64,000 nt of DNA from Streptosporangiaceae bacterium (GCA_050698755.1 JBOHCK010000001.1:140-64139); one strand, 5' to 3'; counted from the first letter of the stretch, positions 2,236 through 59,438 are shown. Program-made: numbers and translations. Notes: a model not told the origin generated them from the letters alone.

Positions 2236-4605
2236 TCATTCGCCGAGCTGGGCGATGGCCGCGTCCCTGATGTACCGCCGGATCGCCAGATCCTCGATCC
2301 GATCCAGCCGGCGGAGCAGATCCCGGAGTTCATTCAGGAATGCCGAACGCCGTTTGCAGAGGTCCTCGCCTGGCTCGAAGAGTCCCCGATTCCTCGCTAG
2401 CTGCAGGGCCGTGGCGAACAGCAGCACCGAGACCGACTCCGAACTGCGCAGCCGCCCCTGGGCCACGTACTGATGGCCCAGCCCCAGCGCCCGCTTGACC
2501 ACCTCCGCCTCATCGGCCTGCTCGCCGACCGCCAGCGCGTCATCGCTGGCCAGGACGTCGGCGACCAGCCGGTAGGCCTGGACGAAGGGCCGCACGATGA
2601 CCTGGGACACCAGCGGGCGCATCTCCGCCAGCAAGGCGTCCGCCTCGTCCGGGCCCGACCTGAGCCGTTCCTCCCACGCCGGATCATGCCGGTCCATCTC
2701 CTGGTGTACGCCACGGCGGAACTCGTCACGGTCCTTGAAGTAGAACTCGAACTTCAGCAGGTCACGGAGCCAGGCGATCTCGGCCCAGAAGGCGCCGACC
2801 GGGTCGGTGCTGTCGTGGTTGGCCCGGAGCACGGCCAGCTCGCACAGGGCCGTGTCGAGCATGAAGTGGATTACCGAGTTCCGGTAGAAGGTGGCGGCCA
2901 GCTGGTGGTCAGGCCCGATCTGCCAGACCGGCTCGCGCCCGTCCGCGGTGACGGTGACGAGCCCGCCCGCGACCAGCGCGTCCAGCGTCGCCCGGACGGG
3001 TTCGGCGGCGGACAGCGCCCGCGCGCTCGCCGTCCTCGGGATCCCGCGGTGCTCGAGGTAGTCGAGCCCGTCGGCCAGCCCGAGCCGGATCTGCCCGAAC
3101 GTCAGCGCGGTTCCGTGCATGGCCAGCAGGATCGTGGTGACCAGGGCGGTGGCCGTGACCGGCATGCCCTGGTTGATCCGCCAGGCCACCTCGAACGCCG
3201 TCTTCTGCAGCGCCAGCCGGCGAGCCGCTCCGGTTTCCGGGTTGGTCGCCGGCTCGCCAGATGGCATTCCCAGGAACGAACTCAGCAGGACCGGCTCGCC
3301 GAAGCGCACGTAGACCTTGCCGTAGTGGCGGGCGCCCTGCGCCTTGATGAAGCCGTACAGCCAGCCGAAGCCCTCCGGCTTCTTCTGCGCCCCGCGCGCG
3401 TAGTCGGCGTACTCGGCGATCTCGTGCAGCTGGTCGAAGGTGATCGAGACCGGCAGCAGCGCGATGTCGTCGACCCGGCCCTGCAGGTAGGCGTCGGCGG
3501 CGTAGGACAGCAGGCCCAGCCGCGGCGGGAGCATCTTCCCGGTGCGCGACCGGGTGCCCTCGATCGACCAGCTGAGGTTGAACCGCTTCTCCAGGACGTA
3601 GCCCACGTACTCCCGCAGCACGTACTTGTAGAGCGGGTCGTCTTGCGTGGAGCGCCTGATGAAGATGACGCCCGCCCGCCGCATGATGGCCCCCATCGGG
3701 CCGAACGCCATATTGATGCCCCCGAAGACGTGCGCGGGCGGCAGGTGATGCTCCTGGATCGCGGCGGTCAGCACGAGGTTGTCCAGGTTCGACCGGTGCG
3801 ACCACAGCAGGATCCCCGGGTGGCGCTGCATCGCCGCGCGGAGCCGCTCGACCTGGGCCTCGTCGTAGTCGATCTGCGGGTCGAAGCCTCGCTGGAAGAT
3901 CAGCCGCCCGACGGTGGGGATGACGTCGATGAGCCGGCGGCTCCACCCCGCGGCGAGTTCCTCGAGAATCTCGCCCGCCTCCTCCAGCGAAGGCGGCGCG
4001 CCGTCCGGGTCGCGCTGTACCCCTTCTAGCCCCTCGCGGAACCGGCGCGAGGCGAGGATCTCCTCCTTGACCAGGCTGGGCGTCTTGTACCGCGGGCCGC
4101 GCAGCCGGTACTCCGCCCGGTCGAGCGCGAGCGTGGCCCGCCGGGCCACGTAGCCCCCGAAGTCGTCCGGGTCTTCCCCGCCGGTGGCCTGCGCCCAGCG
4201 CGCGCGCAGCGAGCCGATCGTGGCGGGCTCGCCGGCGAGCACCACGGCCCGGCCGGGGTGGCGGGCCAGGATCCGCTGCTGCTGCCGTTCGTTCGGGCGG
4301 TACGGGTCGCGGCCCGGCATCATGTCGGCCAGCCGGGCCGCGCGCCGGCCCGAGTGCTCCTCGGGCAGCCAGGCGACCCGGACCGGCACCAAGGCGGTGT
4401 CGTCGGCCCGGTCCAGGAGCCCGGCGGGCGGGCGCGCTCCCGGGCTGCCCGCAGGCGGCAGGCTGACCACGGCCTGAACCAACCCGCCGGCCGCGGCCAC
4501 GTGCTTACGGATGAGCCGCTCTTCCGTCGGCGTGGCCGCCTGGATCAGCACCACCGCTCCCGGGTGCTGCGCCAGGAGTTCGGCCGGCCCTCCCGGCCCG
4601 CTCAC
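2236..4605 (-). CDS. plsB: glycerol-3-phosphate acyltransferase (PlsB type)
   Basis: 789 aa. Acyltransferase H(X)4D motif in WSHRSNLDNLVL, then GGINMAFGP and IEGTRSRTGK blocks. GTG start overlaps the upstream stop (GTGA at 4602-4605). Confidence 0.85.
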   Translation of the reverse strand: MSGPGGPAELLAQHPGAVVLIQAATPTEERLIRKHVAAAGGLVQAVVSLPPAGSPGARPPAGLLDRADDTALVPVRVAWLPEEHSGRRAARLADMMPGRDPYRPNERQQQRILARHPGRAVVLAGEPATIGSLRARWAQATGGEDPDDFGGYVARRATLALDRAEYRLRGPRYKTPSLVKEEILASRRFREGLEGVQRDPDGAPPSLEEAGEILEELAAGWSRRLIDVIPTVGRLIFQRGFDPQIDYDEAQVERLRAAMQRHPGILLWSHRSNLDNLVLTAAIQEHHLPPAHVFGGINMAFGPMGAIMRRAGVIFIRRSTQDDPLYKYVLREYVGYVLEKRFNLSWSIEGTRSRTGKMLPPRLGLLSYAADAYLQGRVDDIALLPVSITFDQLHEIAEYADYARGAQKKPEGFGWLYGFIKAQGARHYGKVYVRFGEPVLLSSFLGMPSGEPATNPETGAARRLALQKTAFEVAWRINQGMPVTATALVTTILLAMHGTALTFGQIRLGLADGLDYLEHRGIPRTASARALSAAEPVRATLDALVAGGLVTVTADGREPVWQIGPDHQLAATFYRNSVIHFMLDTALCELAVLRANHDSTDPVGAFWAEIAWLRDLLKFEFYFKDRDEFRRGVHQEMDRHDPAWEERLRSGPDEADALLAEMRPLVSQVIVRPFVQAYRLVADVLASDDALAVGEQADEAEVVKRALGLGHQYVAQGRLRSSESVSVLLFATALQLARNRGLFEPGEDLCKRRSAFLNELRDLLRRLDRIEDLAIRRYIRDAAIAQLGE

Positions 4606-44633: not shown

Positions 44634-45389
44634 ATGGCAAGGCGACCGCCCGGGCCGAAAGCGACCCCGGCGGATGGGATAACCGCGGCGCCTAAGGTCC
44701 CCGCCAGATCCAAGGCGACTAAGCCGCCCCCTCAGCCCCAGCCCGCCCAGCCCAAACCGGCCCGAGCGACCCCGCCCGCCCGTGCGACCCCGCCCGCCCG
44801 CGCCGCCCAGCTCAAGTCCGCCCGCAGTGCCCGGTCCGAGTCCGCCCGCGTCGCCCAGCCCCAGCCCGCCCGCGCCGCCCGGCCGAAGCCCGCCCGCGGC
44901 GCCCAGCCCCAGCCCGAGCCCGCTCCCCGGCCCGGGCCCGCCCCGCGGCCCGAACCCGCCGCCCGGCCCGAGTCAGCCACCCGGCCCGCGCTTACCCCCC
45001 TGGTCGCCCTGCGCCTATCCGCCGCCGCGCTGGCGCTCGAGGCCGTCGGCCTCGCCGTGGCGGCCGTGTTCGCCGTCATCAACACGGTCGACGGGCACGC
45101 CTACCAGTTGGCCGGCGGCATCGCGGCGACTCTGATCGCCCTCGCCACCGCCTCCGGCCTCGGGGGCATCGCGGTGTGCCTGGCCACCGCCAGGCCGTGG
45201 ACCCGCATCCCGACCGCCCTGACGCAGCTGTTCATAGTCATCGCGGGGATCACCCTGCTCCAGGGGCACCGCCTCGAGTGGGGCGTGCCCGCCCTGGCGC
45301 TGGCGGCCACGTGCCTGGCCGGGCTCCTCACCCCCGCGAGCCTACGCGCGCTCAACCGCCCGCCCGTCGAGACCGCGAAGGACAAGTAG
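44634..45389 (+). CDS. membrane protein with a Pro/Ala/Arg-rich repetitive N-terminal region
   Basis: ATG after GAGAGGA. Residues about 31-118 are PxPAR-type low complexity. The C-terminal ~130 aa contain about 4 hydrophobic helices. Confidence 0.5.
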   Translation: MARRPPGPKATPADGITAAPKVPARSKATKPPPQPQPAQPKPARATPPARATPPARAAQLKSARSARSESARVAQPQPARAARPKPARGAQPQPEPAPRPGPAPRPEPAARPESATRPALTPLVALRLSAAALALEAVGLAVAAVFAVINTVDGHAYQLAGGIAATLIALATASGLGGIAVCLATARPWTRIPTALTQLFIVIAGITLLQGHRLEWGVPALALAATCLAGLLTPASLRALNRPPVETAKDK

Positions 45390-46903: not shown

Positions 46904-47311
46904 TCAGCCCTGCTTGGTCTCCAAGAAGATCTTGTTGATCTCCTCGATCTTGGCCAGCAGCTCATCGGCCTTGTCCACGTCGGTGCTGCCCTTGGTGCCG
47001 GCCGCGCCGGCCAGCTTGGTGGCCTCGTTGAACAGCTGGTGCAGGTGCGGGTACTTCTCGAAGTGCGGCGGCTTGAAGTAGTCGGTCCATAGCACCCACA
47101 GGTGGTGCTTGACCAGCTCGGAGCGCTGTTCCTTGATGATCAGCGCACGGGTCCGGAACTCCGGGTCCGCGTTCTGGTGGTATTTCTGCGTTATCGCCTT
47201 GACGGATTCCGCCTCGATCCTGGCCTGCGCCGGGTCATAGACTCCGCAGGGCAGGTCGCAGTGGGCGTGGGCGATGGCCTTCGGCTCGAGCAGGCGGGTG
47301 AGCAGCGTCAT
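46904..47311 (-). CDS. sodN: nickel superoxide dismutase
   Basis: A 14-15 aa propeptide is followed by the Ni-hook HCDLPCGVYDPAQARIEAESV, and the rest is collinear with Streptomyces SodN. Confidence 0.95.
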   Translation of the reverse strand: MTLLTRLLEPKAIAHAHCDLPCGVYDPAQARIEAESVKAITQKYHQNADPEFRTRALIIKEQRSELVKHHLWVLWTDYFKPPHFEKYPHLHQLFNEATKLAGAAGTKGSTDVDKADELLAKIEEINKIFLETKQG

Positions 47312-47374
47312 CGATTCCCTTTCTCCGACTCGTCAGCTTGTAGACCCGACACTAGCCCGTGCCCTGGAGGCGGC

Positions 47375-47683
47375 GTGCGCTGGCCCCTATTTCGCGTCAT
47401 GGTCGCCGAACCCTCGATGGTGCCCGCCCTGCGCCCCGGCGACTGGCTGCTGGTCCGCCGCACGCGCCGGATCCGCCCCGGCCAGATCGTGATTGCCCGC
47501 CACCCGGACCGGCAGGACTTCCTGCTCGTCAAGCGCGCCGCCCGCCGCCTGGCCAGCGGCTGGTGGCTCGAGTCGGACAACCCGGCCGCGGGCGCGACCG
47601 ACAGCCGCCGCTTCGGCCCGGTCCCCGCCTCGCTGATCGAGGGCCGCGTCCTGCTGCGCTACCGCCGCGCCCGCACCGGCTGA
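47375..47683 (+). CDS. sodX: Ni-SOD maturation protease (S26 signal-peptidase-like)
   Basis: GTG at 47375 after GGAGG (alternative ATG 47399). AEPSMVPALRPGDWLLV...LVKRA...GDN is S26-like. Divergent from sodN, the canonical arrangement. Confidence 0.8.
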   Translation: MRWPLFRVMVAEPSMVPALRPGDWLLVRRTRRIRPGQIVIARHPDRQDFLLVKRAARRLASGWWLESDNPAAGATDSRRFGPVPASLIEGRVLLRYRRARTG

Positions 47684-47787
47684 GCGCCGTGCCCGGCCGC
47701 CCGCCCGCGCCTTTCCATTTAACCCGAACGAAAGGCGGCTCCCGCCACCGCCGCCCGACCCGGTTCCGTGGGTAGGCCGACACAAGC

Positions 47788-47819
47788 GTTGAGGGCCCCG
47801 CAGCTGCGGGGCCCTCAAC
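47788..47819. terminator. bidirectional terminator hairpin between convergent sodX and permease genes
   Basis: GTTGAGGGCCCCGCAGCTGCGGGGCCCTCAAC is a perfect GC-rich palindrome. Confidence 0.7.
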
Positions 47820-47838
47820 GCCTTCAGCGTGCCTGGGC

Positions 47839-49767
47839 TCAGGCCGCTTGCTCCTCTCCGGGAACGGCGGCGGTGCCAGGAGGCGGCTTCGGGCCGACCG
47901 TCGCTTCGACGATCGCCTTGAGTTCGTCGGTGTAGAAACCGCTGAGAAGCGCGAGCCCGAAGGCGATCAGGCCGATGCCGAGCGCGATCAGGGTGCCCCA
48001 GGGGAACGCGAACGCCGGGACCTTCTCCGGGCCGAAGTAGCCGTAGTAGGACACCGGCAGCAGGCCCCACATGGCGGCGATGAACCACAGGCCGGCCCTG
48101 GTGTGCATGCGGCCGGTCTTGCCGGACAGCAGCCACAGGCACAGGCAGAAGAACGCGACGTCGCCGGCCTGGGCCCCGAAGTAGGTCGGGAATGACCAGG
48201 CGCTCGATGCGGGCGGAGTGACCCGCAGCAGCCAGCCGCCGCCCCACTGGATGTAGCACCAGGTACCGAGGTAGACCAGGTTCATGCCCTGGGCGAGCCA
48301 GTTCTTCACCGGGGTCTCGAACCAGCCGTGCTCCCTGGCGTAGTACCAGACGAAGATCGGCAGGCCGACGAAGACCGCGCCGTACACCTGGATCAGCGTC
48401 GAGTATCCGGACCAGTAGACCACCATCCAGGCGGCGCAGAACCCGACCGGCGCCATCACCCAGGCGAACGGGAGCCGGTACGGCCGGTACAGCTGCGGGG
48501 CGAACCGGCGGAACAAGAGCGTGCTGGTGCCGCCCATGATGTAGGTCAGCGCGGTGGCCGAGCTGATGAAGCCCACCAGCGTGTACCAGCTCGGCGTGGG
48601 GATGAAGAAGATGCACCCGATCACGAGCGCGACCACCAGGGAGAGCCACGGGATGTGCCAGCGGTTCGGCCGCTCGAGCGTCTTGGGCAGGGCGCCGTTC
48701 ACCGCCAGGCCGTAGTTGGTCCTGGCGCTGGTGCCGAGGTAGACCCAGCCGGTGGCCGACGGCGAGATGCCCGCATCCACGACCAGGATGGTGGCCCAGG
48801 TGCCGAGCCAGCCGATGCCGGCCGCCTTGAACGCGTCCACCAGCGGCGAGGCTGACCAGGGGCTGCTAAGCAGGCCCGCCCAATCGCCCGGGTGCACCCC
48901 GGCGTTGTGCCAGTTGACCGCGCCGGTGAAGCCGATCTGGATGGTCACGTAGACGGCGAACCCGATCACCACGGCCAGCACGGTGGCCAGCGGGACGTGC
49001 CGCTGCGGGTTCTTGGCCTCGCCCGCGTAGTCGAGGGCCTGCCGGAAACCGAGGTAGGAGAACAGGATGCCGCTGCTGGAGATCGCGCCGAAGATGGCCG
49101 CCGTGCCGTAGGGCGCGAAGCCCTTCGTGCCCCCGAAGGCCAGTGAGGTGTAGTTGTTCTTGACCGTGAAGATGAACAGGAAGATCGCGGTCAGGGAGGG
49201 AATGATGATCTTCCACCAGGTCAGCCAGCGGTTTACCTCAGAAAGCAGCCGGACGCCGAAGTAGTTCAGGCAGAAGAAGAGCAGCATCAGGCCGATGCCG
49301 AACAAGATGCCCTGGGGCCACCTCATCTCCGGGACGCCGGCTTGCGTGACGAGGATCCCGCTGCTGGGTTCCTGGCCGCCGACGTAGGTGACGACGGCCT
49401 CGGCCTCGATGGCGGGCACGGTGATCGCCGACAGCCAGTAGGCCCAGCCCAGCAACCATCCGGTCCAGGGGCCGTGGGTGAGGGCCGGGTAGCGGACGAT
49501 CGCGCCGCTGCGCGGCAGCATGCCGGCCGGCTCCATGTAGGTGAACGCGATGAAGATGATGAAGGCGCCGCCGATTGCCCAGGCCACGATCGCGGCCGGC
49601 CCGGCGAGCGCGGCGGACTTCAGCGCCGCGAACAGCCAGCCGGAGCCGATGATCGCCGTCACCGACAAGAACAGCAGGTGGTTGAAGCCCATGGTCTTCC
49701 TGAGGCCTCGGTCGGCGGCCTCGAACTCCGCTGTACCTGCGACGTTCGCCTCTTGACCTACAGCCAC
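47839..49767 (-). CDS. APC-superfamily amino acid/polyamine permease
   Basis: 642 aa and highly hydrophobic, with at least 12 TM segments. The N-terminal FLSVTAIIGSGWLF block is typical of APC transporters. Confidence 0.85.
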   Translation of the reverse strand: MAVGQEANVAGTAEFEAADRGLRKTMGFNHLLFLSVTAIIGSGWLFAALKSAALAGPAAIVAWAIGGAFIIFIAFTYMEPAGMLPRSGAIVRYPALTHGPWTGWLLGWAYWLSAITVPAIEAEAVVTYVGGQEPSSGILVTQAGVPEMRWPQGILFGIGLMLLFFCLNYFGVRLLSEVNRWLTWWKIIIPSLTAIFLFIFTVKNNYTSLAFGGTKGFAPYGTAAIFGAISSSGILFSYLGFRQALDYAGEAKNPQRHVPLATVLAVVIGFAVYVTIQIGFTGAVNWHNAGVHPGDWAGLLSSPWSASPLVDAFKAAGIGWLGTWATILVVDAGISPSATGWVYLGTSARTNYGLAVNGALPKTLERPNRWHIPWLSLVVALVIGCIFFIPTPSWYTLVGFISSATALTYIMGGTSTLLFRRFAPQLYRPYRLPFAWVMAPVGFCAAWMVVYWSGYSTLIQVYGAVFVGLPIFVWYYAREHGWFETPVKNWLAQGMNLVYLGTWCYIQWGGGWLLRVTPPASSAWSFPTYFGAQAGDVAFFCLCLWLLSGKTGRMHTRAGLWFIAAMWGLLPVSYYGYFGPEKVPAFAFPWGTLIALGIGLIAFGLALLSGFYTDELKAIVEATVGPKPPPGTAAVPGEEQAA

Positions 49768-50445
49768 GACGGGTCACCTCGTTCTGCTGGCAGATCCAGC
49801 TGGTCGTGTTTGGGTATCGAATATCGCACGTTAGCCCGCTTGGCCATCCTGGTCTCTTCTCGCCTGGATCACCGGGTCCTCCCGCCGAGGCGTCGCCGCC
49901 AGGCGTACGACGCTCGACGGCCCGGAATCCCTCCCCATCCGGCCCGGGCGGGCCGACATCTACCAACCTGGTGACCGGTACCGGGCAGTTTCAGTTGCGT
50001 GATGGATCTCGTTCCTGATCATGCCCCGCAGGGCTGGTTACCTACCGTGCGAAGCCTCCCCGGCACAGGTGAGCCTCTCGTATGCGCCGAGTGAGAACAT
50101 CGTAGAGATCATCTCGATTGCTGAGAAGTGTTCCCCCGGATTCGTTTTCATAACGCAGGTCACCTGGGTGTGTTGTCGCCCCTGGAGCCTGTTTGGGAGC
50201 CGCGTGCGGCTTGTGGCCTTGGCCACGATGCCGACGGCCCTGACCGATTGGGATTGCCCCGTGAAACGGCAGCGTTACATTAAATCGGGGCTGCGTTTAC
50301 GCGGCGCCCACCGACTTCCCCGGCTCCGCCGGGTCCATGGCGCCGATCGGCTCCGCGGGGGCTGCCTCGTGCCCGCCGCGGCTCCCGCTCGGCATCCTCG
50401 CCGGCCTGTGCCGCTACGCCCTCGCCAGCCGCCGCGGCGGTGGAT

Positions 50446-50886
50446 TCACCTGTCGTGCGGCACCACGACGACCGGGCAGTCCGCGTGGTGGGTCACCTGG
50501 GTGCTGACGGATCCCATCATCAGCCGGGCGAAGCCTCCGGTGCCGCGCGACCCGACCACCAGCATGTCCGCGTCCTGCGACGCGTCGATCAGCGCCTTGG
50601 CCGGTGAGTCGTTCACCACGCGCACCGTCACCGAGCCGGGCCGCTGCTCGCCAAGCTCGCTGGCGACCTTCTTCACAAGCTCCTTGGCCGAGGTGCGGGC
50701 CCGGTCCAGGCCCGAGGGATCCTCGCCGTAGTCTTCCCGGTTCCCGGTTGCCAGGCTTGGCACCGCCGGGAGCACGGTCAGCACGGTGAGCTCGGCATGC
50801 CGAACCGCCGCCTCTTTCATCGCCCAGCTAAGCGCGTGTTCCGAGTGGACGGAGCCATCTACTCCCACCACGATCCCGGTCATCAC
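50446..50886 (-). CDS. universal stress protein (UspA family)
   Basis: 146 aa. IVVGVDGS...AL.WA, VVGSRGTGGF and HADCPVVVV. Confidence 0.85.
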   Translation of the reverse strand: MMTGIVVGVDGSVHSEHALSWAMKEAAVRHAELTVLTVLPAVPSLATGNREDYGEDPSGLDRARTSAKELVKKVASELGEQRPGSVTVRVVNDSPAKALIDASQDADMLVVGSRGTGGFARLMMGSVSTQVTHHADCPVVVVPHDR

Positions 50887-51152
50887 CGTCTCCTCTCCCC
50901 GTGGCCACCGCCTGCGGTGGCCACAAAGCTCCTATTGCACATCATGCGCCCGCGACATCGCCGCACGCCATAAACAGCGGTCACGCCGGGGCTGGTGCCC
51001 ACCCGGGAACACGAACGTCCCGCCCTCGCTATACGCTGACGCGCTGGTCACGCCGTGCCGGCACTGGTGGCCGGCGCCGCCCGGCCCGCCGCGCCTGCGG
51101 AGTCCTCGCCGCCGTCACGCGCCGGGAACGCGGAGACGTTCGCCCGGTTCAT

Positions 51153-51361
51153 CTGGATGGTGATCTGTTCCGGGCCGATGAGGACGTCCTTGACAGCAGG
51201 CGCAGCACTCGCTGGCGTTCTTCGGTGGTGGCGGTGGCGGCGCTGTCCCGGAGCTGGGCGGGGAAGCCTTCCAGGTTGCCGGCGAGCTTGAGGTAGGCGT
51301 CGCGGTCGGCGGCCTGGGCGTCCAGGGCGGCGAGTTCGCAATAGCGCAGGTCAACCCACAT
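51153..51361 (-). pseudogene. C-terminal remnant of a large serine recombinase (frameshifted, N-terminally deleted)
   Basis: Two overlapping frames read ...YLKLAGNLEGFPAQLRDSAATATTEERQRVLRLL / VKDVLIGPEQITIQ. This matches my recollection of the conserved tail of large serine recombinases (..ERQRxxRLLVKEVLVG..ITIRH). No catalytic domain is present. Confidence 0.5.
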
Positions 51362-51400
51362 AACGCGCCTCAGGCGTGCCGGAGGCTGCCGGACGGTCCG

Positions 51401-52723
51401 CTACGTCGGGCTATCCGCTGGCGTGGCGGGCGCGCTGTCTGTATACGCCGATAGCCGGGCGGAGTAGATGGAGTATCCGTCGACGTGGAAGGCGACGAGC
51501 GTGGCGATCCCGGTCGCCGCCATCATGGGGACCATCAAAGCGAAGCCGCTATGGGTGAGCTCGAGCACGAGGGCGAGCCCGGACAGCGGCGCCTGCATGG
51601 CCGCGCCGATCATGGCGGCCGCGCCGATCATGGCGAACGCGCCGGACGGAGACCCGGGCCAGGCCAGGCTCCAGGCGATGCCCAGCCCGCCGCCGAGAAC
51701 GGCCCCGGTGCTCAGCGTCGGGGTGAACAAGCCGCCGGATGCCCCGCTGCCCAGGCACAGGGCCGTGACCAGCGGCTTGAGCGCGAACAAGGTCAGCAGC
51801 AGGCCCAGGCCGCCGATGCCGAGGAAGGCGTCACGGGCCATGTCCAGGCCGTTCCCGAACAGCTGCGGGTACCAGATCCCGATGACCCCGAGGACGCCGA
51901 AGGCGATCACCGGCGCGAACAGCGCGGTGGTTCCCCGGGCGCGGTGATACGACACCCAGCCGATGAGCCTGATGTACCCGGCCGAGATCAGCCCGATGAC
52001 CGGCCCGGCCAGCAGCGCCCAGGTCATCAGCGATCCGGTGAAGCGGTAGTCGGGGATGCCCTCGTAGACAGCGTGATCGGGCAGGTATATCCAGGCCGTG
52101 GCGGTCGCGATCCAGGAGCAGGCGAGGGCGGGCAGCATGACGGGCAGGGAGATGCTGCCGATGAGGATCTCGGCGGTGAACAGGGCGCCGGCGAGCGGGA
52201 CGTTGTAGACGGCGGCGAGCCCGGCACCGCCGCCGCACGCGACGAGCAACCGCCGCTGCTGCGCCGACAGGCCGCCCCAGTCAGCCAGGAGGCTGCCTGA
52301 TGCGCCGCCGAGCAGCTTGGGCGCGGACTCTCGGCCGATCGAGGCGCCCATCCCGATGACGATTTCGGAAATCACCGAGCTGCCCAGGCAGCGGCGGAAC
52401 GACAGCCGCCCGTCCCCGCTCCAGACCGCCTCGTCGATCTCGGACGGCTCGCCCTGGGTGTAACGGCGCAGCAGGAACCAGGCGACACCGCCGACCGCAC
52501 CCGCGATCAGCAAGGACCCGACCCGCCGCGCCGCGGATGCCTGCTCCACTCCGTGCTGCAGGCTGCCGGAGTGGTAGTCGAACGCCGCATACTGCACGTT
52601 GAACAAGATCAGCATCATCAGCGCGCCGAGCAGGCCGGCGGCGACGCCAGCCAGGATCACCATCAGCCAGAACCGGGGGGTGAGGACCCCGGCCCCGCCG
52701 CTGGTGATGTTCGGCTGCTCCAT
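51401..52723 (-). CDS. ClC-family voltage-gated chloride channel / antiporter
   Basis: In-frame ATG at 52723 (MEQPNITS...), 440 aa. GASIGRESAP, GLAAVYNVPLAGALFTAEIL and GASGGLFTP are ClC selectivity-filter blocks. The 5' ORF extension is R/P/G-rich. Confidence 0.85.
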   Translation of the reverse strand: MEQPNITSGGAGVLTPRFWLMVILAGVAAGLLGALMMLILFNVQYAAFDYHSGSLQHGVEQASAARRVGSLLIAGAVGGVAWFLLRRYTQGEPSEIDEAVWSGDGRLSFRRCLGSSVISEIVIGMGASIGRESAPKLLGGASGSLLADWGGLSAQQRRLLVACGGGAGLAAVYNVPLAGALFTAEILIGSISLPVMLPALACSWIATATAWIYLPDHAVYEGIPDYRFTGSLMTWALLAGPVIGLISAGYIRLIGWVSYHRARGTTALFAPVIAFGVLGVIGIWYPQLFGNGLDMARDAFLGIGGLGLLLTLFALKPLVTALCLGSGASGGLFTPTLSTGAVLGGGLGIAWSLAWPGSPSGAFAMIGAAAMIGAAMQAPLSGLALVLELTHSGFALMVPMMAATGIATLVAFHVDGYSIYSARLSAYTDSAPATPADSPT

Positions 52724-53024
52724 GGCTCCGCGGCCGGACGGCATGCGCTGCTTCAGCAGCGGCTGCGGGCGCCGCACGCGCTCGCTGACCCTGCCCGGCC
52801 GCCGGCCGCCGGAAGTGCTGAGCCAGCGCGGCAGGCCAGGACGGCGTTCCCGGCCGTCAGGACCGCTCATGCGAGTAGCTCCAGAGTGGCCAGGTAATCG
52901 GCTACCGAGTCCATGGCCGACAGCCGGAACACGTGCCAAGCCGGATCGTCCAGTTCGTCGGCAAGGATCGGTTCGGTGTTCTCGCTGCGGTCGCCGACAG
53001 CGACCGCAGCGGTCCGGTCCTTGG

Positions 53025-53345
53025 TCACTGAGCCACCCAGCCAGGGTAGTAGGCTGCCGTGCCGTCGTCAACCGAGATGCACGCCCCGGTGATCCCCGAC
53101 CCGGCGTCCGAAGCGAGCAGCACCGCGACGGCGGAGACCTCCTCGACGGTGACCGGCCGACCCAGCACGGCGTCCCGACTGCAGCGGGCGACCACCTCAT
53201 CAAGCCCTGACAGGCCGAGTCCCTTCCCGCCGCGTCGGCGGACCAGGCCGGTGACCACCAGTCCCGGGTAGATGACGTCCACGGTGATGCCGAGCGGCCC
53301 CGCCTCCTCCCTTGGCCACGGCCTTGGTCAGCCCGGCTCCTAACC
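53025..53345 (-). pseudogene. SDR-family oxidoreductase remnant (C-terminal third only, frameshifted)
   Basis: GLTKAVAKG / EEAGPLGITVDVIYPG ... GRPVTVEEVSAVAVLLASDAGSGITGACISVDDG reads across two frames. The Rossmann N-terminus is absent. Confidence 0.6.
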
Positions 53346-53349
53346 CGCT

Positions 53350-53928
53350 CTACGCGATGGCGCCCGGAGCCTTGGCGTCTGGTTCGTCTTCGCCGCGCTT
53401 GCGGGCGCGGAACGCGGAAACGTTCGCCCGGTTCATGCAGCGGTCAGAGCAGTACCGCCTGGTGTTGCTGGTGCTGACGTCGATGAACACGCCCCGGCAC
53501 CCCGCGGCCTGGCAGACGCCGAACCTGTCGATGCCCAGGTCCGTCAGCCTGACGGCCAGGCCCATGACCGCCCCGGCCGCGTACTTGTCCGCCACCGAAC
53601 CGCTCTCCGTGTAGTGCACGTGCCACCGCTGGCCGTCGTGCCCGGATAGCTGCGGGTGGACGGGATGCTGGATGAGCAGCGCGTTCAGGCGGGCCGCAGC
53701 GTCCTCCCCGTCGCCGTCGGCGCACGCGACGAAGAACGCGCGGAACTCCGCGCGCAGGCTCCGCAGCGCGTCCAGGTCGCCGCGAGTCACGCCCGTATTG
53801 AGATGCTCGCGGTCGGCGACGAGGGCACGCAGCCCGTCGAGGTTGGCCAGGCGGTCACCGTCCTCGCCCGCCCCACCGGCTGTATTCACGAGTCGAACCG
53901 CGAGTTCCGCGTAGGAGTTGAGATCCAC
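53350..53928 (-). CDS. CGNR zinc-finger (ABATE + zf-CGNR) domain protein
   Basis: GTG at 53928. C-terminal GVCQAAGCRGVFIDVSTSNTRRYCSDRCMNRANVSAFRAR is the zf-CGNR signature. Confidence 0.8.
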   Translation of the reverse strand: MDLNSYAELAVRLVNTAGGAGEDGDRLANLDGLRALVADREHLNTGVTRGDLDALRSLRAEFRAFFVACADGDGEDAAARLNALLIQHPVHPQLSGHDGQRWHVHYTESGSVADKYAAGAVMGLAVRLTDLGIDRFGVCQAAGCRGVFIDVSTSNTRRYCSDRCMNRANVSAFRARKRGEDEPDAKAPGAIA

Positions 53929-54162: not shown

Positions 54163-55401
54163 ATGTCTGCAGAACCGGCTTTCCCCGCGCCCGCCTACGG
54201 GCCGCCCGCCCTCCTCAAAGAAGCGGGCCGTATGTCCGCGCGTGCCAATCCGGACGATCCGGTATTCGCCATGCACCGCGGCGGCAAGATCGGCGTTTCC
54301 CCGACCGTGGACGTCACCGACCGCGCCGCCCTGGCCCTGGCCTACACCCCCGGGGTGGCCCGCGTCTGCACCGCGATCGCCGAGGACCCCGAACTCGCGG
54401 GCGAGTTCACCTGGGTCTCCAACACCGTCGCGGTGGTCACCGACGGCACGGCCGTCCTCGGCCTGGGCGACATCGGCCCGAACGCCGCCATGCCAGTCAT
54501 GGAGGGCAAGGCGTTGCTGTTCAAGCGGTTCGCCGGCGTCGACGCGGTGCCGATCTGCCTGGCCTGCACCGACCCGGACGAGATCGTGGCCACCGTGGCC
54601 GCGCTCGCGCCGAGCTTCGGCGGCATCAACCTGGAGGACATCTCGGCGCCACGCTGCTTCGAGATCGAGGACCGGCTGCGCGACCTGCTCGACATCCCGG
54701 TCTTCCACGACGATCAGCACGGCACCGCCATCGTGACGCTGGCCGCGCTGCGCAGCGCCGCCCGGGTCGCGGGCAAGGAACTCGGCGAACTCCGCGCCGT
54801 GGTCGCCGGGGCGGGAGCGTCCGGCGTGGCGGTGACCAAGATGCTGCTCCGAGCCGGGATCGGCGACATCGCGGTGTCGGACCGCCAGGGCCTGATCCAC
54901 CGGGGCCGCGTCGGCCTGAACCCGGTCAAGGCCGCGCTCGCCGCCCGTACCAATAAGGCAGGCCTGAAGGGCTCGACCGAGTCGGCCCTGACGGGCGCCG
55001 ACGTGTTCATCGGCCTGTCCAGCGGCACGGTGCCAGAGCCGGCCATCGCGGCGATGGCCCCCGACGCGATCGTCTTCGCGCTGTCCAACCCCGATCCCGA
55101 GGTCCACCCGGACGTCGCGGCCCGCCATGCCCTGGTCGTGGCCACCGGCCGCAGTGACTTCCCGAACCAGATCAACAACTCACTCGCCTTCCCCGGCGTC
55201 TTCCGCGGCGCCCTCGACGTGCGCGCCACCCGCATCACCGAGGGCATGAAGCTCGCCGCCGCCACGGCCATCACCCACCTGGTCGGCGCGGACGCCGCTC
55301 CCGGCTACGTCATCCCCAGCCAGTTCGACGACCGCGTCGCCCCCGCGGTGGCCGCCGCCGTAGCCGCCCAAGCCCGAGCCGAAGGCGTGGCCCGCCGCTA
55401 A
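54163..55401 (+). CDS. NAD(P)-dependent malic enzyme (short bacterial type)
   Basis: 412 aa. [52 protein letters not shown] and GAGASG. Alternative start ATG 54232. Confidence 0.9.
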
Positions 55402-57950: not shown

Positions 57951-59438
57951 TTAGGCCGGGGCGGCCTCAGCCCCGCCGTCCGGTTGATCCGGGGTCTCCG
58001 GGGCTTCCGCGCTCTCGGCGCCCTCGGCGCCCGGCTGGTCTGCGGCATCGTGCGGACCCGGGGCATCTTGCGTGCCTGCAGCCGGCCGCCGACCTGGCTC
58101 GTGGGAGAAGCCGAAGATCTCGGTCTTGATGCGCTCCAGGGCCTCTTCCAGGATGGAACGCAGGTCGCTGATGACGTTCTCACCGGCCGAGGTGGACTGG
58201 GTGGCCAGCCTCCTGACGTCGGACGTGAACTGCACGGCCAGCCGTTCCAGGTCGCGGAGCGTGGCTAGGTCGAGCGGGCCGGGCCAGCCGCGACGTCCGC
58301 CGCGCCCTCGCGCCCAGTCTTCCCAGCCATGCCGACCTTGCCAGTCCGTGAAGCCCGACCAGCCCGGCGCCTCCCAATTTTGGTCGCCCGGATTGAACCG
58401 GGCCCCGGCTCCCTCGCGGATCCGGTCCCAGGCGCTCCAGTTGCCCGAGGACTCCTCGCGCACGCGCTGAGCTTCCTCACGCAACCGGCGCGCGCTTTCC
58501 CGCACGCGGCGGGCCGCGTCCTGCCCCAGCGACTCCGCACGACTCCGCGCCGACTCCCCGGCCGGGCCGCCCTGCTCTGCCGCTCCGCTGTCTTCGGCCT
58601 GGCCGCCGTGCTCTGCCGCTCCGCCAGCCGTCGCCTGACCGCTTTGCCCCGCCGGTCCGCCGACCCCGGCCTGGCCGCCGTGCTCTGCCGGTCCGCCGTC
58701 CCCCGCCTGGCTGCCATGCTCCGCGGGTCCACCGTCCCCCGCCGGGCCGCCGTGCTCCGCCGGTCCACCGTCCCCCGCCGGTCCGCTGGCACCCTCCCGG
58801 CCCAGGTCCTCCGCGTAGCCGGCCTGGCCCGGTTCGGCCGCTCGCCGCCATTCCCTCGTCTGTTCGCGGGCCCCCTTGGCCTGCTCGAGAGCTTCGTCAC
58901 GGGCCTGACGAGCCTGGTCGCGGGCTTCTTCCCAGTCCATCCGGGCCTGCTCGTAGGCCTCATCGCGGGCCTGGCGGGCCTGCTCGCGCGCTTCCTCGCG
59001 GGCCTGCCTGGCCTGCTCGCGCAGGTCGCCGCCCAGGTCCCGGCCCACCCGGCGGGATTCCCTGGCCGCCCAGGTCAGCTCCTCGCGGAGGCTACGCACG
59101 GTCTGCCTGACGTCCTCCCTGACCTCTCGGACGATGTCGCTGACGGACGCGGACAGCTCCTCTTCGAGCTCGTCGAGCTCGTCACTCCTGCTCCGCAACT
59201 CCTCGCGCCCGGCTTCCGTGATCCGGTAGACCTTGCGCCCGTCGGTCTCGTCGTGCGTGACCAGGCCCTCTTCCTCGAGCCGGGCCAGCCGCGGGTAGAT
59301 CGTCCCGGGGGAGGGCGAGTACACGCCCATGAACCGGTCGCGCAGCAGCCGGATAACCTCATAGCCGTGCCTGGGCTCCTCATCGAGGAGCCGCAGCAGG
59401 TACAGCCGGAGGCTGCCGTGGCGGAATACCGGACTCAA
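57951..59438 (-). CDS. PadR-family transcriptional regulator with a long repetitive/coiled C-terminal extension
   Basis: TTG start overlaps the upstream stop (TTGA). The N-terminal ~90 aa is a PadR wHTH (YLLRLLDEEPRHGYEVIRLL...GTIYPRLARLEEEGLV). An E/R/Q/A coiled region and GGPAEHG repeats follow. Confidence 0.8.
   Translation of the reverse strand: MSPVFRHGSLRLYLLRLLDEEPRHGYEVIRLLRDRFMGVYSPSPGTIYPRLARLEEEGLVTHDETDGRKVYRITEAGREELRSRSDELDELEEELSASVSDIVREVREDVRQTVRSLREELTWAARESRRVGRDLGGDLREQARQAREEAREQARQARDEAYEQARMDWEEARDQARQARDEALEQAKGAREQTREWRRAAEPGQAGYAEDLGREGASGPAGDGGPAEHGGPAGDGGPAEHGSQAGDGGPAEHGGQAGVGGPAGQSGQATAGGAAEHGGQAEDSGAAEQGGPAGESARSRAESLGQDAARRVRESARRLREEAQRVREESSGNWSAWDRIREGAGARFNPGDQNWEAPGWSGFTDWQGRHGWEDWARGRGGRRGWPGPLDLATLRDLERLAVQFTSDVRRLATQSTSAGENVISDLRSILEEALERIKTEIFGFSHEPGRRPAAGTQDAPGPHDAADQPGAEGAESAEAPETPDQPDGGAEAAPA
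58554..58787 (-). repeat. imperfect tandem repeat of about 36 bp, in frame (GGPAEHGGPAGD-type units, about 6 copies)
   Basis: Units like ggccgccgtgctc(t/c)gccggtcc(g/a)ccgtcccccgcc recur. They encode residues about 218-295 of the PadR protein. Confidence 0.8.

Follow-up and report, generated by a model that had tools for sequence, protein, structure and literature searches.

Displacement of the 3' end of a gene, and with it of the C-terminus of the product, is known from rhs genes (Jackson et al. 2009, as cited in PMC5361080), from contact-dependent inhibition (CDI) systems, and from the arrays of the Vibrio type VI secretion system (T6SS), in which the live gene is followed by an accumulation of orphan 3' ends. 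Kirchberger et al. (2017, PMC5361080) described such displacement, together with its orphan 3' ends, in T6SS effector-immunity arrays and Rhs loci, and proposed as its cause homology-facilitated illegitimate recombination anchored in the conserved upstream part of the gene. Recombination of this kind is credited to de Vries & Wackernagel 2002, Prudhomme et al. 2002 and Meier & Wackernagel 2003, as cited in PMC5361080, and has been demonstrated during E. coli conjugation (PMC3240628). We describe here a locus that invites comparison with these systems, in a 64,000-nt stretch of DNA from a Streptosporangiaceae bacterium (the window), in which the 3' end of a gene encoding a CGNR zinc-finger protein is present twice, on either side of a segment carrying an intact ClC gene and the remnant of a large serine recombinase.

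We consider it probable, at roughly 60%, that the duplicated CGNR 3' end is the scar of a 3'-end displacement, produced by recombination between related bacteria within a hypervariable slot, and that it does not reflect att duplication by a mobile element; the argument is built on comparison with related loci. A preliminary description of the window, made without such comparison, had read the arrangement as an element that integrated into the 3' end of the CGNR gene and then decayed. Coordinates are those of the whole window, and the named slot genes lie on the minus strand, in actinomycete sequence with a GC content of about 0.70. The principal features are:

53350-53928, minus strand: gene for a CGNR zinc-finger/ABATE protein, 192 aa, a putative transcription regulator, mosaic (Pfam ABATE E 5.7e-16, zf-CGNR E 2.3e-14)
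53420-53446, no strand: switch from backbone-type (Z) to L001-type (X) ancestry at the start of the conserved core, read as a homologous crossover
53409-53436, minus strand: proximal 28-nt core, encoding MNRANVSAF in the live CGNR gene, with the extended repeat continuing to 53375
53025-53332, minus strand: SDR pseudogene fragment, 5'-truncated and frameshifted (adh_short_C2 profile positions 183-235 of 236)
51401-52870, minus strand: ClC channel/antiporter gene, intact, 489 aa (Voltage_CLC E 2.5e-74, full-length alignment)
51153-51361, minus strand: large serine recombinase remnant, 63 homologous codons corresponding to residues 456-518 of 555, with a base missing at 51193/51194
51152-51153, no strand: junction J, the joint of recombinase codon Q (CAG) with the ATG of the orphan CGNR core
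51125-51152, minus strand: distal 28-nt core, within the orphan CGNR 3' end
51048-51152, minus strand: orphan CGNR 3' end of L077 type, 34 codons and stop, colinear with L077 489-593 and running on into the gene for a universal stress protein (USP)

The repeated CGNR 3' end and the ancestry of its parts

The two 28-nt cores (51125-51152 and 53409-53436) match at 27 of 28 positions and belong to an extended 62-nt repeat (51091-51152 and 53375-53436) with 77% identity and a spacing of 2,284 nt. The core pattern occurs at these two places in the window and at no others, and there were no occurrences in 100 dinucleotide-preserving shuffles, even with three mismatches allowed. Between the repeats lies a 2,284-bp segment with the SDR pseudogene fragment, the intact ClC gene and the serine recombinase remnant. 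The repeat with its spacing and single core mismatch, and the presence between its copies of an intact ClC gene and a frameshifted SDR fragment, are as the preliminary description gave them.

The relatives were collected by a one-genome-per-species scan with the CGNR protein, which yielded 76 loci in Streptosporangiaceae and Trebonia-like metagenome-assembled genomes (MAGs). Both flanking genes, CGNR and a convergent sodX-like gene, are present in 64 of them, where the right flank is 11 nt to 4.9 kb away from the CGNR stop. The commonest state is a slot of about 2.1 kb holding a promoter and a different permease; several loci have 3.5-4.9 kb, L005, L011, L024, L032, L033 and L036 have 11-97 nt, and the slot of the window is the largest at 5.67 kb (47675-53385). 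The interval from the CGNR stop to sodX is a hypervariable slot lying between two conserved genes, newly described here. The CGNR C-terminal tail changes together with the slot content across the 64 loci. Among all of the loci compared, the window alone has a second core.

The 28-nt core is the most conserved stretch of the CGNR gene across dozens of species (CMNRANVSAFRARKRGED), and not an att core. Nearly every orthologue keeps the CGNR motif ...RRYCSDRCMNRANVSAFRARKRGED, the handful of residues that follow varies almost throughout, and blastn alignments to the window commonly end at 53384-53387, such that the core is the last conserved stretch of the gene and forms the left edge of the slot.

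An allele corresponding to an empty site is present in three relatives. In L077, L078 and L079 a single full-length CGNR 3' end is followed by a USP gene, the permease promoter and leader, and the same 642-aa permease as in the window. Positions 3-541 of L077 align to window 53922-53384 and positions 489-1254 to window 51152-50431; because these alignments overlap, both repeat copies of the window map to one 53-nt stretch of L077. Relative to this 'empty' allele the 2.28-kb segment is an insertion. The closest homologue of the window's USP, with 86% amino-acid identity, is also on these three loci, and a metagenome scan with the USP protein returned only paralogues of about 50% identity and no further L077-type loci.

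The block comprising the SDR fragment, the ClC gene and the truncated recombinase is found in L001 only among the 76 loci, the others passing from CGNR to something else. In L001 it starts about 18 nt past the CGNR stop codon, with neither a CGNR duplication nor a second core, and its edges differ, lying 18 nt past the stop on one side and at the permease promoter on the other. The nearest relative changes along the window:

ADH, malic enzyme, intergenic sequence and CGNR 5' part (53928-53446): nearest L005/L033, 92-95% nucleotide identity
core and right tail (tail R), SDR fragment, ClC, recombinase remnant (53445-51153): nearest L001, 92-97% nucleotide identity
left tail (tail L), USP, leader, permease (51152-47839): nearest L077-79, 81-96% nucleotide identity
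everything below 47675: nearest L005/L033, 93% nucleotide identity

The window is a three-way mosaic, with a backbone like that of L005/L033, an insert like that of L001 (type X) and slot content like that of L077 (type Y); L005 and L033, as well as L032, themselves have an empty slot. The switch from backbone to insert ancestry can be placed closely, since in a column-by-column comparison the last L001-specific mismatch is at 53446 and the L005/L033-specific mismatches start at 53440-53427. Mismatches to L001 fall from 67 in the 483 nt upstream of the switch to 7 in the 146 nt downstream (Fisher p 0.002), and those to L005 rise from 22 of 483 to 60 of 146 (Fisher p 1e-25). A crossover within the duplicated homology predicts an ancestry switch inside or at the start of the repeated core, which is where it is seen. 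A reading in which tail R is simply native and the left copy is the remnant of an unrelated paralogue was rejected on this comparison, which places the switch at the core.

The two tails have different ancestries. The right tail is 97.3% identical to L001 and the rest of the CGNR gene 95.4% identical to L005, and this tail therefore arrived with the insert; its source is a sister allele of the locus and not the att arm of an element. The orphan tail ends in ...AAPATSAGTA and a stop (FPARDGGEDSAGAAGRAAPATSAGTA), against ...AAPPTSTGTA and a stop (FRARKRAEDDADTAGPAAPPTSTGTA) in L077, and has lost conserved R, K and R residues (FRARKR to FPARDG), as expected of a dead fragment. Its L077-type ending and decayed residues mark the left copy as the displaced original tail. 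That one copy completes the gene and the other was displaced had been proposed in the preliminary description, and is borne out by the two ancestries. We also note that in L006 (from 10463) the CGNR tail contains a tandem repeat, PGATVL three times over, and has no stop in the 70 residues examined, which is another sign that the tail is unconstrained.

The recombinase remnant, junction J and the possible history of the locus

The frameshift-corrected translation of 51153-51361 is 76% identical to residues 456-518 of the plasmid homologue L101 (E 1e-27), and a word-indexed search with it gave 76 database matches, all of at most 128 aa and several of them named site-specific DNA recombinase; no Pfam domain matched the remnant. 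Look-ups by exact sequence, with the CGNR protein of the window and with the 70-aa ORF of the remnant, gave no record. Full-length homologues were found by tblastn on plasmids, the representative-protein search having given mostly fragments, and they are 555-579-aa 'recombinase family proteins' with Resolvase, Recombinase and Zn_ribbon_recom domains, located on actinomycete plasmids amid insertion sequence (IS) elements and group II intron debris. Measured against them, the remnant is without residues 1-455, which contain the catalytic, recombinase and zinc-ribbon domains, and without residues 519-555, the last 37 codons. The remnant is a genuine piece of a large serine recombinase, from the C-terminal coiled-coil/tail region, and the left CGNR copy is fused to it in frame (...VKDVLIGPEQITIQ). 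In these respects, the fusion, the resemblance to recombinases, the frameshift and the missing catalytic domain, the preliminary description was accurate. In the databases the family is represented overwhelmingly by short C-terminal fragments (P0002-P0076, P0317-P0457), most of the best 150 representatives being partial, and decayed copies of the gene seem to be very common in actinomycete metagenomes.

Writing J as a slash, the window reads ATCACCATCCAG/ATGAACCGG, L001 reads ATCACCATCCAG/CACCGCATCCCG, and the CGNR gene reads GACCGCTGC/ATGAACCGG. No microhomology is seen at J on direct reading, and a shared ACCGC nearby is out of register. In L001 the recombinase frame runs on through the position of J as ITIQ/HRIPIRDH...DTEGDHHPGYPLRWG (ITIQ/HRIPIRDHNPASGHHTAEHDTEGDHHPGYPLRWG), matching the tails of intact homologues, and J is therefore a window-specific, derived break inside the recombinase gene, and neither the end of an element nor an att site. 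L001 and the window have an identical joint, in which a 60-nt linker connects the 3' end of ClC to the 5'-truncated recombinase, so the recombinase had lost its catalytic domain and was already dead before J arose. Past its longer recombinase tail, L001 carries at 3342-3673, on the opposite strand, a fragment of a group II intron reverse transcriptase (RT) gene (tblastn, 65% identity to ltrA, E 3e-19; Pfam gives a weak RVT_1 match only), and past this the permease promoter begins at the base equivalent to window 50163. Fragments of group II intron maturases also flank the plasmid homologues L100 and L101, which have a small CopG/helix-turn-helix gene in front, and the recombinase family may be a habitual target of group II introns.

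The history we propose takes place in a Streptosporangiaceae/Trebonia-like clade in which CGNR and the convergent sodX gene flank a lineage-variable slot that may be empty or hold promoter and permease, USP and permease, or other genes, the non-conserved CGNR tail traveling with the content. In the X lineage, as the comparison with L001 shows, the spacer that separated the CGNR stop from the permease promoter gave way to a patchwork block consisting of a 5'-truncated SDR gene, a ClC copy separated from its native upstream region, a 5'-truncated recombinase gene and the group II intron RT fragment. X DNA running from the CGNR core through tail R, the SDR fragment and ClC to codon Q518 of the recombinase would then have been added to a type-Y slot arranged as in L077 (core, tail L, USP, promoter, permease), by one homologous crossover in the 28-nt core and one illegitimate, homology-free joint (CCATCCAG/ATGAACCGG). 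The resulting arrangement is seen directly and the mechanism is our proposal: either homology-facilitated illegitimate recombination or, equally, circularization of a fragment by end-joining followed by a Campbell-type single crossover. By either route the incoming tail would complete the gene, and the resident tail and its neighbors would be pushed 2,284 bp downstream, the tail as an orphan; both routes explain why the repeat starts exactly at J, why the ancestry switch is inside the repeat, and why the resident tail and neighbors are intact but shifted. The ClC gene would have been kept by selection, with the recombinase remnant as a passenger.

Several observations weigh against this history. 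The recipient is hypothetical, since in no sampled genome does a backbone-type 5' part of CGNR occur together with a tail and slot of L077 type. Identity of the L077-type sequence to the window is just 81-92% for the tail and USP and 96% for the permease, and this unevenness requires more recombination events than the two proposed. Twenty-eight nucleotides is a very short substrate for homologous recombination, and J is without microhomology, although such illegitimate joints reportedly often use a few shared bases, according to work of 2002-2003 in Acinetobacter, Streptococcus and Pseudomonas. L001 and L078 come from the same bin, such that X and Y could be alleles of different strains or two loci in one genome. 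Lastly, the window is an assembled contig and all of the comparators are MAGs.

The shared bin bears on a different route to the same arrangement, which we regard as unlikely, if less so than the other alternatives. A full X-type locus could have been followed by a second complete CGNR-USP-permease locus, acquired by duplication or an earlier additive import, and a later deletion from the recombinase remnant into the second CGNR gene could have left only the last 34 codons of that gene. One illegitimate event then suffices for J, whose blunt, homology-free character is as expected of a deletion, the sequence did once run beyond J to judge from L001, and the presence of L001 and L078 in the same MAG means that both locus types may coexist in one genome. 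However, it leaves unexplained why the deletion endpoint in the second CGNR gene should lie within about 10 nt of the Z-to-X switch in the first, and two CGNR genes or two cores occur in none of the 64 loci with both flanks. The same bin, with X- and Y-type contigs together, could also point to a chimeric contig assembled from co-occurring strains with different slot alleles; a three-way mosaic with switch points at conserved sequence has that appearance, and L077 and L078, the contigs of Y type, end at the two boundaries of the slot, as is seen when flanks are common to several strains. This we consider improbable, since the parents of J share no k-mer (CCATCCAG/ATGAACC as compared with CAG/CACCGC and TGC/ATGAAC) and a graph-based assembler would have no path across it, the conserved codons of the orphan tail have decayed as those of a real pseudogene would, and the window differs by 3-19% from each comparator, and so is no splice of sampled contigs.

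Integration of a mobile element, its recombinase gene at the edge, site-specifically into the CGNR 3' end, with a replacement tail brought in and ClC left as cargo after decay, accounts for the direct repeats around the insert, the empty-site allele, the imported proximal and original distal tails, the recombinase remnant at the distal edge, and the plasmid homologues among IS elements and group II intron debris. We nonetheless give it very little credence, as on the sequence comparison it is already contradicted by L001, where the recombinase open reading frame (ORF) that J cuts in the window runs on past that position, the 5' truncation that predates J is shared, and the block sits past the stop codon without any duplication. 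Its proximal edge, moreover, is a truncated SDR gene and no att arm. What large serine recombinases normally leave is a very short shared core, in contrast to the 28-62 nt of this repeat. The window and 99 loci contain no intact recombinase copy, no other duplicated core was found, and GC is 0.70-0.72 across the segment, like the flanks and with no step. No tRNA gene able to act as an att site was found, and Rfam searches were without relevant matches, whether in the region with E values up to 1 or, at the gathering score, across the whole window. What survives of the preliminary description is an insertion in the CGNR 3' end relative to the empty allele; the integration by a recombinase-driven element does not, and the recombinase, already dead before J, did not insert the segment. 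An equally remote reading makes the CGNR core, which borders a slot with different content in almost every species sampled, the dedicated recombination site of an unrecognized, integron- or shufflon-like cassette exchange between CGNR and sodX. A trans-acting recombinase or a targeted break-and-join system would operate it, and the window would have been caught with two stacked cassettes, which seems to us hardly credible; its positive support is the variability of the slot alone. We return to displacement by recombination between diverged alleles as the preferred reading.

Cargo and other contents of the slot

The SDR fragment represents the last third of the adh_short_C2 profile alone, carries a 1-nt insertion near 53306 and was seen outside the window in L001 only. 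The imported block has its proximal edge where this fragment starts, about 18 nt past the CGNR stop, and in the insert-free relatives L002, L009 and L027 homology to the window stops at about 53330.

The second cargo gene has a full-length Voltage_CLC domain, an open frame and purifying selection, and belongs to the ClC family, its product being a putative chloride channel or antiporter. Native loci L082-L085 are 87-89% identical to it at the nucleotide level, with homology extending from 52930 to about 51400, and identity of this order to chromosomal ClC genes of the clade makes it an intra-clade copy. The dN/dS ratio is 0.21 against L001, 0.23-0.29 against the native copies, and 0.24-0.27 among the native copies themselves, so the gene behaves as the native ones do and is maintained by selection at this site. 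The proposal that ClC is domesticated cargo is fair as regards retention and conjectural as regards an origin from a mobile element. The window copy keeps just 59 nt of the native upstream region, native homology starting exactly at 52930, and it is without the approximately 150 nt of upstream sequence that the native orthologues (L082:7941-9479, L083:7941-9448, L085:7884-9415) have in common. The neighborhoods of these orthologues are rearranged, and include genes for metallo-beta-lactamase-fold/rhodanese, TauE, Pyr_redox_2 and PIG-L proteins and a heavy-metal ATPase.

Downstream of the orphan tail, the slot and its right flank comprise:

50446-50886, minus strand: USP gene (Pfam Usp E 9.3e-33), 92% nucleotide identity to L077-79
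50164-50445, no strand: 282-nt spacer from the USP stop to the permease promoter, without a match
49768-50163, minus strand: conserved permease promoter and 5' leader, with a sharp upstream boundary at 50163; in 54 loci, with the same starting base
47839-49767, minus strand: amino-acid permease, 642 aa (AA_permease_2 E 3.2e-38), the last gene of the L077-type slot
47675-47683, no strand: right boundary of the slot, at the 3' end of the convergent sodX-like gene, where the L005/L033-like backbone resumes
47102-47683, plus strand: sodX-like S24/S26 peptidase gene, convergent, adjoining the NiSOD gene (sodN)
46904-47311, strand not given: NiSOD gene (sodN), adjoining the sodX-like gene

The 282-nt spacer has no match in 101 loci, and L077 has an unrelated 409 nt at the same place. 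The conserved block at 49975-50163 (minus strand) is also present in 53 related loci (e.g. L003:10765-10953). It opens with GTGACCTGCGTTATCAAAACGAATCCGG...CTTCTCA-17 nt-TACGATG, which resembles an operator and promoter, and continues as a 5' leader of about 100 nt. The block has no Rfam match; RNAalifold finds no pairs in the whole leader alignment, and for a sub-alignment it predicts a modest structure of -27.7 kcal/mol in which compensatory changes are few. The ABATE/CGNR fold has been described (PMC2954205). Because the promoter block always adjoins the CGNR gene, it may be the target of that regulator. The leader of most relatives has ...GATCGATCATGGCAACTGAA at its end, where a different permease has its start codon (alignment A2 columns 186-192, L002-L076). 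In the window (49985-49995), L001 and L077 it reads ...TCACGCAACTGAA, the ATG is lost, and the 642-aa permease begins about 220 nt further on. The permease thus appears to have been swapped behind a retained promoter and leader; that of the window is 96% identical in nucleotide sequence to L077/L078, as against 76.5% to L001.

Two further observations lie outside the slot. On the side of CGNR away from the slot there is another presence/absence polymorphism, that of a malic-enzyme gene (54163-55401) placed between CGNR and an ADH-like gene: the window, L033, L008, L011, L020 and Trebonia-like loci have it, and L001, L002, L005 and many others do not. Long GC-rich tandem repeats at 58555-58786 and 44771-44988, with periods of 36/108 nt and 24/48/72 nt, are probably the coding sequence of repetitive protein segments rich in Pro and Ala.

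Comparison with known systems

The arrangement has evident similarities to islands that tyrosine integrases insert into the 3' ends of tRNA or protein genes, supplying a substitute 3' end, and to the prophages and integrative and conjugative elements (ICEs) of large serine recombinases. As in the 3'-end islands, a repeat of the target 3' end flanks the insert, the proximal copy came with the insert and the distal copy is the original, relatives have an empty site, and a recombinase-gene remnant adjoins the distal repeat. Unlike them, the window has no integrase beyond this dead remnant, no element capable of autonomous excision or transfer and no foreign GC, and its insert matches a sister allele of this locus at 92-97% identity, the block occurring in L001 without a repeat. 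Elements of large serine recombinases further differ in having a once-complete recombinase gene whose natural end is inside the element boundary, and constant attL and attR with a short crossover core, neither of which is found here, the repeat being 28-62 nt long. The locus is therefore a cautionary case, in that a gene 3'-end repeat beside a recombinase remnant mimics an integrated element, and about 80 related loci point to recombination between diverged alleles. Annotators should mark the SDR and recombinase fragments and the orphan tail as fragments of pseudogenes, and should avoid the terms prophage, ICE and island for this locus. It also illustrates that a transporter gene such as ClC can move and be retained without an active mobile element, and it has no bearing on any long-standing open question.

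Homology-facilitated illegitimate recombination and Campbell-type integration offer a closer match, with one end anchored by homology (the CGNR core), a homology-free joint at J, and a net gain of foreign DNA. The window departs from such cases in that it is inferred from comparative sequence only, the retained anchor is very short, the joint is without microhomology, and resident DNA is duplicated and not deleted.

The resemblance to Rhs, CDI and T6SS loci extends to the organization of the gene. A conserved 5' part is followed by a variable 3' end that co-varies with the downstream genes, an incoming variant 3' end and its cargo are joined at the conserved part with no integrase required, an orphan 3' fragment without a 5' part (51048-51152) lies downstream, and the ancestry switch is in the conserved region. 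The differences are that the gene encodes a putative transcription regulator with no polymorphic toxin/immunity module, that the cargo consists of transporters, a stress protein and mobile-element debris, that a single displaced copy is present and no array, and that the variable tail is a short unconstrained peptide with no functional domain, such that no selective benefit of tail swapping is evident. The locus thus works as these displacement loci do without being one of them, and ordinary regulator genes of soil actinomycetes may, like toxin loci, be shaped by 3'-end displacement. The window is most likely a further instance of a known, ordinary recombination scar, in a newly described slot.

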